Shown piece after piece: positions 9,956 through 63,040 of a stretch of DNA of 64,000 nucleotides. Under the pieces are notes generated by a model that was not told the DNA's origin, did no database searches, and saw only the letters and a list, made by a program, of their open reading frames with translations. The stretch lies in the NCBI RefSeq assembly GCF_056746865.1, contig NZ_CM163382.1; one strand, written 5' to 3'. Within the stretch, counting starts at the first letter, position 1; every line of letters starts with the position of its first letter. The position numbers were made by a program, and so were the translations under genes.

Positions 9956-9970
9956 TGGCACGGCGATTGC
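9956..9970 (+). promoter_or_regulatory. Candidate sigma-54 (-24/-12) promoter for the lfgB-lfgL operon
   Basis: TGGCAC-ggcga-TTGC with exactly 10 nt between GG and GC, about 38 nt upstream of the lfgB ATG. Confidence 0.6.
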
Positions 9971-10007
9971 TTAGCGTATGCGGATTGAAGCAGGAGTGAC
10001 GCAGGAA

Positions 10008-16925: not shown

Positions 16926-16998
16926 CGGTTTACGGAACTTAAGAATCCCCAACCTAACGCCGCTTTTAACCGGCACGATTTACCGGTAAGGATCCAAC

Positions 16999-19335: not shown

Positions 19336-20313
19336 ATGCAGGTCGGACTTACATCTTCGTCACTCGCCACCGGCGGCGCGCATAGCGCTGCGGTATCGTC
19401 GTCAACCGTTGCGCCCACTCAGGCGGTGCGGCAAAAACTCCCGGCGACGGCGAGTGAATATCCGGCCTCGCCGCTGATTACCACTCGCCCGCAGCGTTAC
19501 AGCGTGCAGCTTAACGACCAGCTCACCACGTTGCAGCAGGCGGATCACTATCTCGGGCAACTGGAGCAGCAGTTGCTCGATTATCGTCACAGCCAGCGCA
19601 AAGGCGGGCAGGCGCAGAGTTCGGCGCTGATGCAGATGCTGGACAAACGCACCGCGCTTTCCGGCGGTGCGGTGGACCGCCAGTTGCAGCCAGTGTTGCA
19701 GGGGGAAGCGCGGGTGACTTTTCACTCGCCGGATCTGGCGAATCTGGTACACAATCCCACGCCGGGAACGCGCATGTTCAGCGTCTCTGACGGGCGGCAG
19801 ACTCAGCTTTCGGCGGTGATGCTGTCTGAGGATGACAGCGCTGGGCAGTACCAGACGCGGCTGACCAACGCCCTGCGCCGCGTGGGCGTGCAGATGCATC
19901 AAAACGCCGATGGTATAAGTTTCTCCACCACTGAAAAACAGTGGCCCAACATTGAAAGCACCCTAAGCGTGCGCACCGATGGTGATAAATCAGCGTTTAT
20001 GCCACTAAAAACCTTTGCCGAACCGTCGCAGGCGGACCGCTTAGTGCAAAGCCTGCAACAGGGCGGAGCGGGGATTTCTCAGACGTTAGAAAGCATTAAT
20101 CAGCAGCGTGTGCAGATGGCGGTACAGCAGGAAAAGGCGCGGCAGTTGATCGACGGCATGTCGCGCTTCCCGCAAACGGAAAGCGCCGTGCAGGCGTCGG
20201 AAAATCTCGGCGGCGTGCTGGATAGCGCCAATCATAACTATCAGGTTTTATTGCAGGCGGTGAACGGTCAGGCGCGAATTTCCAGCCAGACGGTGAGGAG
20301 TTTATTGGGTTAG
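19336..20313 (+). CDS. lafW: Flag-2-specific protein of unknown function (position of lafW)
   Basis: 325 aa with a Ser/Ala/Thr-rich N-terminus, located between flgL and the regulator/flagellin genes. Function is not evident from sequence. Confidence 0.5.
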   Translation: MQVGLTSSSLATGGAHSAAVSSSTVAPTQAVRQKLPATASEYPASPLITTRPQRYSVQLNDQLTTLQQADHYLGQLEQQLLDYRHSQRKGGQAQSSALMQMLDKRTALSGGAVDRQLQPVLQGEARVTFHSPDLANLVHNPTPGTRMFSVSDGRQTQLSAVMLSEDDSAGQYQTRLTNALRRVGVQMHQNADGISFSTTEKQWPNIESTLSVRTDGDKSAFMPLKTFAEPSQADRLVQSLQQGGAGISQTLESINQQRVQMAVQQEKARQLIDGMSRFPQTESAVQASENLGGVLDSANHNYQVLLQAVNGQARISSQTVRSLLG

Positions 20314-20334
20314 GGTTATTGTCATTGTTGCTTT

Positions 20335-20378
20335 TATAGCTATTAAGCTATAGTTTATCTATAGCATAAAAGCTATGA
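20335..20378. promoter_or_regulatory. Two inverted repeats (TATAGC...GCTATA) upstream of the toxin gene; candidate toxin-antitoxin operator
   Basis: TATAGCTATTAAGCTATA and CTATAGCATAAAAGCTATG lie immediately upstream of a GAGGGA ribosome-binding site and the ATG at 20386. Confidence 0.5.
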
Positions 20379-20385
20379 GGGACCG

Positions 20386-20730
20386 ATGATGTGGGACGTC
20401 GAGACAACGGAGACTTTCGACAACTGGTTTGATGCCCAGACTGTTGCGCTGAAAGAAGATTTACTTGCTGCAATGCTGATTCTTGCTGAGTATGGCCCAC
20501 AGTTGGGCAGACCCTTTGCGGATACGGTTAATGATTCACAGTTTTCAAATATGAAAGAATTACGCGTCCAACATCAGGGAAACCCGGTACGTGCTTTTTT
20601 TGCTTTCGATCCTGCGCGCCGTGGCATTGTATTATGTGCGGGTGATAAAACGGGGTTAAATGAGAAAAAGTTTTATCGCGATATGATCAAGCTCGCTGAT
20701 TCTGAATACCGTAAGCATCTGAAAAAGTAA
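20386..20730 (+). CDS. Type II toxin, RelE/ParE superfamily (HigB-like 'addiction module killer' family)
   Basis: 114 aa with a C-terminal GIVLCAGDK...KKFYRDMIKLAD region reminiscent of HigB-like killer proteins. It lies 9 nt upstream of a small HTH gene, and the toxin-first order is typical of higBA. Confidence 0.7.
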   Translation: MMWDVETTETFDNWFDAQTVALKEDLLAAMLILAEYGPQLGRPFADTVNDSQFSNMKELRVQHQGNPVRAFFAFDPARRGIVLCAGDKTGLNEKKFYRDMIKLADSEYRKHLKK

Positions 20731-20739
20731 GGAACGATA

Positions 20740-21039
20740 ATGGCTACTCTAAAAGAACTGATGGCAAAGCAAAGCCCTGAAAGCCAGGTGCGTATTGCGG
20801 CAAAAGTTGAGGAAATGCGCCAGACCATCGCCTTGCATCAGCTGAGAGAAGAACTCAATATTTCGCAAACGGAAATGGCGGCAGCGATGGGCATTAAGCA
20901 ACCGACTCTTGCAAAAATGGAGCAGGCAGATAACGATCCTCGGTTGTCTACGCTAAAACGCTATGTTGCGGCTTTAGGTGGGGAATTGAGTATCGACGTT
21001 AAACTGCCGAATGGTAAGAGAATTGCATTTCAGATTTAA
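20740..21039 (+). CDS. Type II antitoxin, XRE/HigA-family helix-turn-helix protein
   Basis: 99 aa with an HTH motif (ISQTEMAAAMGIKQPTLAKME), tightly coupled to the upstream toxin gene. Confidence 0.75.
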   Translation: MATLKELMAKQSPESQVRIAAKVEEMRQTIALHQLREELNISQTEMAAAMGIKQPTLAKMEQADNDPRLSTLKRYVAALGGELSIDVKLPNGKRIAFQI

Positions 21040-21096
21040 TTTTGGGGTGCATTTTATGAACCGGATTAGATAAAACGGTATCTAATCCGGTAAACA

Positions 21097-21990
21097 TCAG
21101 CATTTCTGCACAGTATTTAACAACTTCTCTAAATTCTGATACATCGCGCTATTAATATCGCTATTCTGCCAGCTATCCACATTAAAAGTTAATTGCCAGC
21201 TACCGTTGCACTGGTTGCGCAGAACAATATCACTCTCCAGTCGGTTACGAACATATTTATAATAGGTTGTCATTGTCATATTATGCGCTGACAATAAATT
21301 ATCGAGTTTGTCTTTTCCTGGTGCGAGGGTTTGTGACAGTAACGGTACGGAATTATTTTCCTTTCCAGAACTAAGATGAAATATTTTTATTCTTGGACTG
21401 TTAATTGACTCTTTTACCAGTTGCGGGGCGTCAGGTGTACTTTTCAAGTGTGAATACCCCACGGTTGAGCCAACCAATATAACAGCTGCGGCCAACGCTA
21501 ACCCCATCAGTCCTTTATGTTTTTTTCTAACAGGCACATACGGTGTTGTCGAAGATATCTCTTCTGGGGCTGTATCCTGTATCTGGTCGGTAATAATCAG
21601 CGCTTCTGCAGGCGATGACTCCGGCAAAGACACATACTCTTTATTGCATAAGTAACCTTTCTTCGGAATTGTTTTAATAATGTTCTGTTGTTTGCCATCA
21701 TCGTCGATAGCAACGCGCAACGCATGGATCGCCGTCGGCAGGCTGTTTCCGCCGACAATACGGTTCTTCCATACTTCGGCACATAAATAAGATCGCGATA
21801 AAACCACATCGGCATTTTTTGCTAATGTTTCCAGCAAAATAAAATGGTATTCGCCGAGACGACGTGTTTCACCCGTTTCGCAATGTATTAAGGCATTAAG
21901 CGACGGGTCCATCCGCCAGTTGTTGATAATAATACTCATAGTTGAGTTTACCTTAGCAAGGGATAAATGTTTCCTGATAGTGCTTTGCAT
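21097..21990 (-). CDS. lafZ: Membrane-anchored ToxR/CadC-like transcriptional regulator (position of lafZ)
   Basis: 297 aa with an N-terminal winged-helix OmpR/CadC-type DNA-binding region, a single TM helix (GLMGLALAAAVILVGSTVGY) and a periplasmic C-terminal domain. The gene is AT-rich relative to its flanks. Confidence 0.6.
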   Translation of the reverse strand: MQSTIRKHLSLAKVNSTMSIIINNWRMDPSLNALIHCETGETRRLGEYHFILLETLAKNADVVLSRSYLCAEVWKNRIVGGNSLPTAIHALRVAIDDDGKQQNIIKTIPKKGYLCNKEYVSLPESSPAEALIITDQIQDTAPEEISSTTPYVPVRKKHKGLMGLALAAAVILVGSTVGYSHLKSTPDAPQLVKESINSPRIKIFHLSSGKENNSVPLLSQTLAPGKDKLDNLLSAHNMTMTTYYKYVRNRLESDIVLRNQCNGSWQLTFNVDSWQNSDINSAMYQNLEKLLNTVQKC

Positions 21991-22424
21991 AAAGCACAGT
22001 CTTATACGTCCCTGAGAAGATGATTTTTCTGCGTGATAATTAATATTTTATGGTGATAAGATTATTCTTAATCACTATATAGCGTGGAAATGTAACGAAA
22101 TGACAGGACAGGTACAATAGCCAAATGTGTACTATTTGCAACGCAATGTAAATTTTGGCATCAGTACATTGAGAACAAAACGCGATAATTGATGACAATC
22201 TTAACTATATCAAGCGTTTGATAAAGACATATTTTGATACCTGGCCATGTGGCAGATATTGCTAATAATCTTTTTATCTGAATTTAAACTCTGCTTTTTT
22301 TAGCTAAAAGTGGCATCGGATAATACGTGGCGAAAAAATTTTAACGGCGATTTTAAGTTTGCTCCTGAGGTGTCGTTTTTACAGGGTATCGAAACGAAAA
22401 CGATTAATCCCAAGGAGCAGTATC

Positions 22425-23339
22425 ATGTTATCTATTAACACCAATAACGCCTCAATGGCCGCCGTTAATGCAATCAGCAAAAGCAGCTCTTCTCTGTCTA
22501 CATCTATGGAACGCCTGGCGACAGGTAACCGGATTAACTCTTCTGCCGATGACGCCGCAGGCAAACAAATTGCTAACCGTCTGACAGCACAGTCCAGCGG
22601 TATGGGTGTTGCGCTGAGCAACATCAATGATGCCACCGCGATGCTGCAAACCGCTGACAGCATGTTCGACGAAATGTCTGACGTGCTGGGTCGTATGAAA
22701 GACCTGTCAACTCAGGCAGCGAACGGCACCTACAGCGACGACGACCTGCAGGCGATGCAGGACGAATACGACGAACTGGGCCAGCAGATGTCTGACATGC
22801 TGCAAAACACCACTTACGGCGGCACCAACCTGTTCGGTGTTTCCGGTACCAGCAACACCGGTACTGACGGTCTGTTCCAGAGCGCGGTAACTTTCCAGGT
22901 GGGCGCGGAATCTTCCGACACCATGACCGTGAATATTTCAAGCCAGCTGAATACCCTGGTGACGGATCTTTCTGCAATCAGCAACTCCTTTAGTGCGGAT
23001 CAGGCTGACACCACTGGCACCGCAGGCGTTTCTGGCGGTACTGAGCTGACTGCGTCTGGCTCGGCTAACCAGATGATCACCAGCATCTCTACCGCGATGG
23101 ATGACGTGTCTCAGATCCAGTCCAAGCTGGGTGCCTCTATCAACCGTCTGAACGACACTGCCAACAACCTGACCAGTATGCAAGACAACACCGAAGTCGC
23201 TATCGGTAACATCATGGATACCGACTACGCGACGGAAGCGTCCAATATGACCAAACAGCAAGTGCTGATGCAGACTGGCATCACCATGCTGAAACAGTCC
23301 AACAGCATGTCCAGCATGGTTTCCAGCCTGCTGCAGTAA
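22425..23339 (+). CDS. lafA: Lateral flagellin
   Basis: The ATG at 22425 follows an AAGGAG ribosome-binding site. It has the flagellin N-terminus (MLSINTNNASMAAVNA...RLATGNRINSSADDAAG) and C-terminus (MTKQQVLMQTGITMLKQSNSM), about 304 aa. Confidence 0.9.
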   Translation: MLSINTNNASMAAVNAISKSSSSLSTSMERLATGNRINSSADDAAGKQIANRLTAQSSGMGVALSNINDATAMLQTADSMFDEMSDVLGRMKDLSTQAANGTYSDDDLQAMQDEYDELGQQMSDMLQNTTYGGTNLFGVSGTSNTGTDGLFQSAVTFQVGAESSDTMTVNISSQLNTLVTDLSAISNSFSADQADTTGTAGVSGGTELTASGSANQMITSISTAMDDVSQIQSKLGASINRLNDTANNLTSMQDNTEVAIGNIMDTDYATEASNMTKQQVLMQTGITMLKQSNSMSSMVSSLLQ

Positions 23340-23344
23340 TGGCG

Positions 23345-23380
23345 GACTTGCCGATGCGGCGTAAACGCCTTATCCGGCCA
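23345..23380. repeat. REP unit downstream of lafA
   Basis: GCCGATGCGGCGTAAACGCCTTATCCGGCC. Confidence 0.7.
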
Positions 23381-23385
23381 CGAAC

Positions 23386-23414
23386 AACACCGCCTGCGGG
23401 CGGTGTTGTGCTTT
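23386..23414 (+). terminator. Rho-independent terminator candidate after lafA
   Basis: Hairpin AACACCGCCTGCGGGCGGTGTT followed by a T-rich run (GTGCTTT). Confidence 0.6.
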
Positions 23415-23496: not shown

Positions 23497-23511
23497 TGGC
23501 ACGCCTTTTGC
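23497..23511 (+). promoter_or_regulatory. Candidate sigma-54 (-24/-12) promoter for lafB through lafU
   Basis: TGGCAC-gcctt-TTGC with canonical spacing, about 33 nt upstream of the lafB ATG. Confidence 0.6.
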
Positions 23512-23543
23512 CATTAACCTGACATCGTTACCCGGAGTCATCA

Positions 23544-61526: not shown

Positions 61527-62138
<612 letters not shown>

Positions 62139-63040
62139 TTACAGGTACATTCAGTTTCTTTAGTAAATCGGAAGTAAATAAGATACGTAGCACATATCAA
62201 TATAGGTTAAACGAGATTAAGTTTTAATTATTTTCGATTGGGCTTAAATTTATGTTTTTTTCCTGATGAGTGTCAATATGTGAACAGAAAAGGAATTCCA
62301 TGGTTAAGTCAATATTTACAAAAAATGAAAATATTGCTTTTTTGATAAGAAGAAAAAGACATTCAGTTTCATAAGGTTATTGGCAATATAACGTTCAATT
62401 CTTACTTGCATTTTATATTAGCCAGGAACTTTGCCCTGAGGTGTTAGGAATAGTCTTAATGTGTTGTGTAATGGACTAGTAAAAAAACAAGTTTAAATGA
62501 TAAGAAATAGAATATAAAACTATAATGAGTCATAATTAAAGATGATTTGCCAATCAGTAAAGTGTTTTAATGGATTAACATGCCGCACAAAATGGTTATG
62601 GGTGTTCATTCCAATAAGTGATGAAAAATTAAACAGGTGTAAGTACGTCATCTGTCCGGTAAGCCCCCTAAGAGCCAAATTAAGTGAAGTTAAACGAAGA
62701 CTGCCAGTTGTCACAGGAACGATGGCCTCTTTGCCAGGGCACTGCATTCAGTCATCTGTGCGCGTTACTCTAACTGGCACTCGAACGTCGGCGATGGGGT
62801 TACCGGTGGATCAGGCCGTTCCTGTGGCGTAAACGTTTTTATGTCAGTACCAACAGATTTACCACATTTATCATCTTAACCGTTTGAGTGTAAATGCAGG
62901 CTGCGTCGCAAAGGGAGGAAACTGAGTGGCGTGTTCAGTCTAAAAGAGAGTTGATGCCAGCATACAGGGCGCACCTGGTCAACAAGTCAACATTAATATA
63001 ATGGAATATTCGGAGAGAAACGTCAGGCAGTTGACCTTAA

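Follow-up and report, generated by a model that had tools for sequence, protein, structure and literature searches.

The window analysed here, a stretch of 64,000 nucleotides from contig NZ_CM163382.1 (RefSeq assembly GCF_056746865.1), carries genes of the Flag-2 (lateral) flagellar locus of Escherichia coli. This work concerns one of them, lafZ, which encodes a predicted membrane-bound regulator, and the long spacer that separates it from the divergent lateral flagellin gene lafA. Positions 20300-23400 are 100% identical to the chromosomes of E. coli 118UI and many other strains. In the RefSeq annotation of the surrounding 43 kb, lfgK and lfgL are followed by a hypothetical gene (lafW), a RelE/ParE toxin, a helix-turn-helix (HTH) antitoxin, a "transcriptional regulator" on the opposite strand, lafA and fliD (lafB), with lafU and dinB farther on. 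The open reading frame (ORF) of the regulator is lafZ: it lies between lafW and lafA, diverges from lafA and is orthologous to LafZ of E. coli 042, and UniProt and AFDB entries titled "Lateral flagellar transmembrane regulator LafZ" share 97% identity with the window protein. The gene was named earlier and hence is not new. De Maayer et al. (2020, PMC6993521) describe LafZ, with reference to Ren et al. (2005), as a putative transmembrane regulator; according to the same paper it is not found in Flag-1 and serves, with LafK and LafW, as a Flag-2 marker, since it co-occurs with the locus. With its spacer (at least 80% coverage, 95-100% identity), lafZ is present in 1256 of 5426 complete E. coli genomes (23%).

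The original prediction had described a 297-residue protein of low GC content facing lafA across an AT-rich control region of about 430 bp. An ORF of that length is confirmed in the window (21097..21990, minus strand), opening at an upstream in-frame ATG at 21990. The true start is nevertheless probably M18, because the RefSeq annotation and the 48-member family alignment both begin there, with 47 of the family members starting at this methionine; the protein would then have 280 residues and the spacer 485 bp. Residues are numbered below in the 280-residue form unless the 297-residue form is named. The base composition was as described, with a GC content of 0.42 for lafZ, against 0.54-0.60 for lafA, lafW and lfgK, and of 0.35 for the spacer; of all 434-bp windows across the 64 kb, only 1.2% have a GC content that low.

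21097..21939, minus strand: lafZ coding sequence, 280 residues from M18 (RefSeq start); stop codon 21097-21099
21625..21939, minus strand: predicted cytoplasmic winged-helix DNA-binding domain, residues 1-105, ToxR/CadC subtype of the OmpR family
21514..21624, minus strand: linker, residues 106-142, predicted disordered, of variable length
21451..21513, minus strand: predicted single transmembrane helix, residues 143-163 (Kyte-Doolittle maximum 2.0; AlphaFold helix 143-163)
21100..21450, minus strand: predicted periplasmic α/β domain, residues 164-280 (~117 residues), with two invariant cysteines, C244 and C280
21940..22424, no strand: lafZ-lafA divergent intergenic region, 485 bp, GC 0.35
22425..23339, plus strand: lafA, RefSeq "lateral flagellin LafA"; Shine-Dalgarno AAGGAG at 22412-22417

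The sole Pfam domain detected in LafZ is Trans_reg_C (E = 4e-13, residues 42-114 of the 297-residue ORF), an OmpR-type winged helix placed at the N-terminus without a receiver domain. In a search of the family profile against all PDB sequences, V. cholerae ToxR (7nmb/8b4b, E ~ 2e-17) and E. coli CadC (5ju7, 6e-14) scored far ahead of the response regulators, which start at about 1e-6. Because of this ranking, the DNA-binding domain can be placed by its sequence in the ToxR/CadC branch specifically. The original prediction had made its reading depend on a match of this domain to OmpR/ToxR winged helices, and the ToxR hit supplies it. Two other assignments were rejected. An OmpR/PhoB two-component response regulator would carry an N-terminal receiver domain with a phospho-acceptor aspartate; Pfam finds no Response_reg domain, and models of such proteins align via their C-terminal effector domain only. 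A CadC orthologue is likewise excluded: the NCBIfam model NF007540 scores 33.8 bits against a cut-off of 400, with only residues 52-137 of the 297-residue form (the N-terminus) aligned.

We modelled LafZ with AlphaFold (AF2) on a 48-sequence family alignment, with a mean predicted local distance difference test score (pLDDT) of 86.6. The DNA-binding domain reaches a pLDDT of 92-98. The linker that follows it falls below 50 at residues 111-139 and shows large indels in the alignment. The sole hydrophobic segment of the protein, residues 160-180 of the 297-residue form, coincides with the modelled membrane helix and is preceded by the basic stretch RKKHK; these basic residues N-terminal of the helix predict a cytoplasmic N-terminus and a periplasmic C-terminus. 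Modelled alone, the periplasmic domain reaches a pLDDT of 91.5 with the topology β-β-α-β-β-β-α. It has no sequence match in the PDB. A Foldseek search of the PDB places VtrA at ranks 2 and 4, at a sequence identity of 10-16%, and in AFDB50 the top 40 matches are LafZ orthologues, followed by winged-helix proteins of about 255 residues from Vibrio. The predicted structure has a ToxR/VtrA-type α/β fold. Both cysteines, C244 and C280, are invariant in the 48 family members. As in ToxR, one of the two stands at or next to the end of the protein. The periplasmic pair is thus conserved in sequence and may form a disulfide. Taken together, the winged helix, the single predicted transmembrane helix and the VtrA/ToxR-type periplasmic fold bear out the ToxR/CadC-like architecture originally proposed.

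A scan of 100,044 species genomes gave 80 lafZ loci (80 species). In 52 of these species lafZ stands back-to-back with lafA across a long AT-rich spacer, so that the predicted divergent arrangement proves to be a conserved one. Spacers in 52 other species measure 413-1052 bp with a GC content of 0.29-0.43, whatever the GC content of lafZ (0.40-0.56). The comparison indicates that the low GC content of E. coli lafZ is a trait of its clade, and that the AT-rich spacer is universal. A Pseudescherichia group keeps the lafZ-like gene and its partner but has no lafA; there the locus ends at lafZ, which adjoins fepA. One entry of the set, CACSKA010000002.1 (L027), is titled Chryseobacterium sp. 18061, yet its Flag-2 segment is enterobacterial and has nearly the same layout as that of Citrobacter sp. 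18056 (L026); this assembly is probably mislabelled or contaminated.

Against other Escherichia alleles, the ratio of nonsynonymous to synonymous substitution rates (dN/dS) of E. coli lafZ is 0.18 overall. The DNA-binding domain has the lowest value (0.04-0.05), followed by the periplasmic domain (0.13); in the linker and transmembrane helix the ratio is 0.3-1.2. These values indicate that the gene is under purifying selection in E. coli, despite the loss of a partner gene described below. A comparison with Pseudocitrobacter (L007, L008) shows a mosaic pattern: dS is 0.29-0.39 for lafW and lafA, with LafA nearly 100% identical, while lafZ has a saturated dS of 2.3-2.7 and a protein identity of only 63-66%. 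Two explanations offer themselves: lafZ and its spacer are an old allele within a locus that came to be shared recently, or a recent exchange affected the flanking genes.

The family has a second component. An ORF of about 155 residues lies 3' of lafZ on the same strand in 67 of the 80 species (for example L010:4929-5408 and L043:4920-5384), typically overlapping the lafZ stop by 20-29 nt. Its N-terminus has a hydrophobic segment, and about 125 of its residues are predicted to be exported. The ORF falls into two homologous subfamilies (hhalign probability 96.5%, E 8e-10), matches no Pfam family and no PDB sequence, and is annotated "hypothetical protein" throughout. A published comparative survey classes the interval as "VR2", a variable region that holds acquired cargo, on average 0.6 kb and one hypothetical protein; the ORF looks to us like a conserved partner in a lafZ operon rather than variable cargo.

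The partner ORF occurs in none of the Escherichia or Pseudocitrobacter loci examined. In these loci, 56-62 bp separate the stop codons of lafZ and lafW, or a toxin-antitoxin pair is inserted between the two genes. In the window, neither tblastn nor hmmsearch of the six-frame translation found the partner at 20314-21096 or anywhere else in the 64 kb. A co-transcribed small partner, which is a feature of the ToxR-like group of ToxR, TcpP, VtrA, CadC and PsaE without being universal in it, is therefore present in the LafZ family and absent from this locus, a distribution that points to loss in the Escherichia/Pseudocitrobacter lineage. By analogy, the partner would be the positional and architectural counterpart of ToxS to ToxR and of VtrC to VtrA. 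The partner and its loss in E. coli form a modest, testable new lead.

Within the divergent spacer, four features stand out.

22352..22379, plus strand: predicted lafA promoter of the lateral sigma-28 (LafS) type, TTTAAGTT-N12-GTCGTTTT, identified by phylogenetic footprint
22332..22344, plus strand: conserved A/T tract GAAAAAATTTTAA, ahead of the -35 element by 8-20 nt; invariant AAA...TTT columns, present in most species
22086..22156, minus strand: block conserved from Escherichia to Phytobacter (phylogenetic footprint), with a candidate sigma-70 promoter of lafZ
22254..22287, no strand: second conserved block AGATATTGCTAATAATCTTTTTATCTGAATTTAA, alignment columns ~392-425, from Escherichia to Phytobacter

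The original prediction had reported no convincing sigma-28 pair in front of lafA. This part did not hold: a predicted sigma-28-type promoter is present at 22352-22379, with its -35 element TTTAAGTT at 22352-22359 and its -10 element GTCGTTTT at 22372-22379, ending 45 nt before the lafA ATG. When the 120 nt preceding lafA were aligned across all species, a single element of fixed place emerged, TTTAAKTT-N12-GYCGYTTT, preceded by the A/T tract. We built a position weight matrix (PWM) from 33 non-redundant sites; in each of the 53 spacers, 7 of which had been left out of training, it gives exactly one strong match 40-81 nt before lafA, and it gives essentially none pointing towards lafZ. The promoter had been missed by eye because its motif deviates from the E. 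coli FliA consensus, which it matches at 11 of 16 positions; the consensus is that of FliA, and the lateral motif departs from it. The canonical form of that consensus, TAAAGTTT-N11-GCCGATAA, had been tried and set aside in favour of phylogenetic footprinting, as it matches at most 11-12 of 16 positions in the spacer, no better than on the reverse strand.

In 38 of 41 species the same motif is found upstream of lfgK, at a distance of 32-70 nt, and in the window it precedes both lfgK and lfgM.

16935-16968, plus strand: LafS-type motif CTTAAGAA-N-GCCGCTTT, 32 nt upstream of lfgK
9175-9147, minus strand: LafS-type motif TTAAAGTT-N13-ACCGCTTT, 38 nt upstream of lfgM

Flagellin, flgKL and flgMN are the classic sigma-28 class-3 operons. 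Because the motif precedes the lateral counterparts of these operons, and because lateral class-3 genes of V. parahaemolyticus are, in the account of a citing paper, LafS-dependent (Stewart & McCarter 2003, as cited in PMC4481668), we infer that the lafA/lfgK/lfgM motif is the LafS class-3 promoter. The A/T tract at 22332-22344 resembles an UP element in position and sequence and may act as one. As a separate observation, a second LafS-type motif in the orientation of lafA occurs farther upstream in 11 of the 53 spacers (PWM up to 26 bits), the E. coli window not being among them; it lies ~165-300 nt upstream of lafA in L043, L060, L078 and 7 other loci, and 485 nt upstream in L067. This motif may belong to a tandem promoter, or may drive a small transcript that has no annotation.

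No sigma-54 site was found within 2 mismatches in the lafZ-lafA spacer. Such sites do occur elsewhere in the locus.

23497-23512, plus strand: sigma-54 match TGGCACGCCTTTTGCC, 1 mismatch, 32 nt before lafB
9956-9971, plus strand: sigma-54 match TGGCACGGCGATTGCT, perfect, just upstream of lfgB (ORF from 9978)

These candidate sites fit control of the lafB-lafU operon, which contains lafS, by LafK and sigma-54.

On the lafZ side of the spacer, the 22086-22156 block contains a candidate promoter with a -35 element TTGCAA (22141-22136), a 16-nt spacer and a -10 element TATTGT (22119-22114). Its match to the consensus (8 of 12 positions) is weak but conserved, too weak for a promoter scan to have listed it, and AATGTAA repeats flank it at 22089-22095 and 22145-22151. 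The block may carry the lafZ sigma-70 promoter, which would imply a 5' untranslated region (5'UTR) of ~165 nt; a structured RNA was not indicated in this putative 5'UTR (z = -0.7), and Rfam returned nothing relevant. The second block, at 22254-22287, could be a regulator-binding site. Spacers of the Enterobacter/Cedecea/Buttiauxella clade have conserved blocks of their own, again with a GTTGCA-type -35 element, and these conserved blocks are the best candidates for regulator sites. A search of the spacer for direct and inverted repeats returned short imperfect pairs only, as expected of AT-rich DNA.

Given these features, we propose, with a probability of roughly one half, that LafZ is a Flag-2-specific one-component membrane regulator of the ToxR family whose DNA-binding domains act on the lafZ-lafA spacer on top of the flagellar cascade, and which in E. 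coli lacks its partner. A cue from the envelope or periplasm, or a redox change in the cysteine pair, would alter the dimerisation or stability of LafZ, and the DNA-binding domains would then bind sites in the spacer. Binding would tune lafA, the promoter of lafZ itself, or both, independently of the LafK-to-LafS cascade, so that LafZ may gate lafA. In most Enterobacterales, LafZ would be co-translated with its exported partner of ~155 residues, as in ToxR/ToxS and VtrA/VtrC; in E. coli, where the partner was lost, it would act alone, perhaps with little activity, in keeping with the laboratory silence of Flag-2. We regard the more far-reaching version of this proposal as tentative, and doubt it more than we believe it: that LafZ and the ~155-residue ORF form, by analogy, a two-protein ToxRS/VtrAC-like envelope sensor of Flag-2 across Enterobacterales, that Escherichia and Pseudocitrobacter lost the partner (with the toxin-antitoxin pair in its place in 042-type strains), and that orphaned LafZ contributes to the silence of E. 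coli lateral flagella in the laboratory.

Several observations weigh against the proposal. The lafA promoter is already complete and conserved, with its UP-like tract, and may need no extra activator. No family-wide LafZ box was detected: the exact 8-mers enriched in 59 non-redundant upstream regions were all either A/T low-complexity words or parts of clade-specific blocks. The partner ORF has no detectable sequence similarity to ToxS or VtrC. Six species (L031, L035, L040, L046, L057, L074) lack lafA and keep a lafZ-like gene and its partner with lafS as the divergent neighbour; the sigma factor of L031 is 54% identical to LafS of the window. In an Erwinia/Pantoea group (L029, L032, L036, L037, L049, L051, L056), a lafZ-like gene and its partner are flanked by circularly permuted ATP-grasp genes on one side and by unrelated genes on the other, and the ±4 kb around them holds no flagellar gene. 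In the searchable literature, we found no experimental work on LafZ.

Part of this evidence could also mean that LafZ acts higher in or beside the Flag-2 hierarchy, on lafK, the lafS operon or the whole locus, and that its adjacency to lafA is historical. Besides the six lafS-adjacent loci and the self-sufficiency of the lafA class-3 promoter, this reading draws on the finding that no LafS-type promoter faces lafZ, which is therefore not a class-3 gene. The lafS-adjacent cases may, however, be plain deletions of lafA through lafF, and the back-to-back arrangement kept in 52 of 80 species, with a long spacer and conserved blocks, weighs against this reading. We consider action higher in the hierarchy unlikely.

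It is rather improbable that E. coli LafZ is an inert remnant, its output unread in a cryptic locus that has lost the partner gene. ToxR, TcpP and VtrA need their partners, and the partner of LafZ is missing from all Escherichia and Pseudocitrobacter loci examined. Moreover, LafA was undetectable in E. coli ST131 (sequence type 131) strain EC958 under all conditions tried (PMC4637896), and lfgC is frameshifted in 042 (PMC3032704). Against this reading, lafZ is intact in 1256 of 5426 complete genomes, both of its cysteines are retained, and both folded domains are under purifying selection.

Another possibility is that the spacer is chiefly silenced by H-NS and that LafZ serves as an anti-silencer rather than as a classical activator. 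ToxR acts in this way at some promoters, E. coli Flag-2 is silent in culture, and the low GC content of the spacer, here and in the 52 other species, would suit such silencing. Yet the H-NS high-affinity motif is not enriched in the spacer, where one 2-mismatch match was found, and the argument for silencing thus comes from AT-richness, which promoters, UP elements and long 5'UTRs share equally; a look for H-NS chromatin immunoprecipitation (ChIP) data on the spacer also returned none. We therefore give anti-silencing little credence. That LafZ is a general envelope-responsive regulator, resident at Flag-2 by chance and controlling mainly genes outside it, is very improbable, since the Erwinia/Pantoea loci that would suggest it are set against tight synteny in most taxa and the use of lafZ by De Maayer et al. 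as a marker co-occurring with Flag-2.

The remaining features of the region concern the neighbours of lafZ and lafA.

20386..21039, plus strand: RelE/ParE-type toxin (20386-20730) and HTH antitoxin (20740-21039), inserted between lafW and lafZ at the site of the partner gene of other genera
21060..21091, no strand: perfect 12-bp inverted repeat ACCGGATTAGAT / ATCTAATCCGGT whose arms enclose an 8-nt loop, located between the stop codons of the antitoxin gene and of lafZ, read from the sequence

The toxin-antitoxin pair between lafW and lafZ is known from E. coli 042 (PMC3032704), and this version of the locus is found in only 71 of 5426 complete E. coli genomes. The inverted repeat separates two convergent genes, the antitoxin gene and lafZ, and probably forms a hairpin that terminates transcription in both directions. 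Directly after the lafA stop, in the lafA-lafB spacer (23336-23379, minus strand), Rfam gives a sub-threshold match to naRNA4, a family derived from repetitive extragenic palindromic (REP) elements (30.7 bits against a gathering score of 59.5). The lowest GC content of the window (0.276 in a 434-bp window at 62121) lies within ~61750-62800, well outside Flag-2.

Flag-2 lateral flagella are encoded by about a quarter of E. coli, including ST131 and enteroaggregative E. coli (EAEC) 042, and by many plant and animal pathogens. To our knowledge, no one has found conditions that switch on the lateral flagella of E. coli. As the one locus-specific regulator of Flag-2 with an extracytoplasmic sensor, LafZ offers an obvious handle on the inducing signal. 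The finding as a whole is a correct re-discovery of an annotated gene. What it adds to the label "transmembrane regulator" is the ToxR/CadC-type domain, the VtrA/ToxR-like sensor with its cysteine pair, the corrected start, the LafS-type promoter consensus, and the partner ORF and its loss; we found no domain-level, promoter or partner analysis of LafZ in published work.

Among known systems, LafZ of E. coli 042 is the product of this very gene, set in an identical gene order (lafW, toxin-antitoxin pair, lafZ, divergent lafA), and nothing of substance differs. ToxR of V. cholerae provides the best match to the DNA-binding domain and shares the layout of winged helix, transmembrane helix and small periplasmic α/β domain, as well as a periplasmic cysteine pair with one member at the extreme C-terminus. 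The small, exported, co-translated partner of LafZ relatives occupies the position of ToxS. The two systems differ in that their periplasmic domains have no detectable sequence similarity, in that the E. coli lafZ locus has no partner gene, and in that the targets of LafZ would be flagellar genes rather than porin or virulence genes. VtrA, the bile-salt sensor of the V. parahaemolyticus type III secretion system 2 (T3SS2), resembles LafZ in its periplasmic fold, as judged by Foldseek (PDB ranks 2 and 4), and Vibrio proteins of ~255 residues come next after the LafZ orthologues in AFDB. However, it shares only 10-16% identity with LafZ, and it works only in complex with VtrC, a ligand-binding barrel with no such gene in the window. 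CadC, the E. coli pH/lysine sensor, has a ToxR-like topology and a DNA-binding domain close to that of LafZ (5ju7, 6e-14), and some LafZ orthologues are named "CadC family transcriptional regulator" in RefSeq, although the score against the NCBIfam CadC model (33.8) is far below its cut-off (400). CadC has no small partner, whereas ToxS, TcpH, VtrC and PsaF are the partners found in the ToxR-like group.

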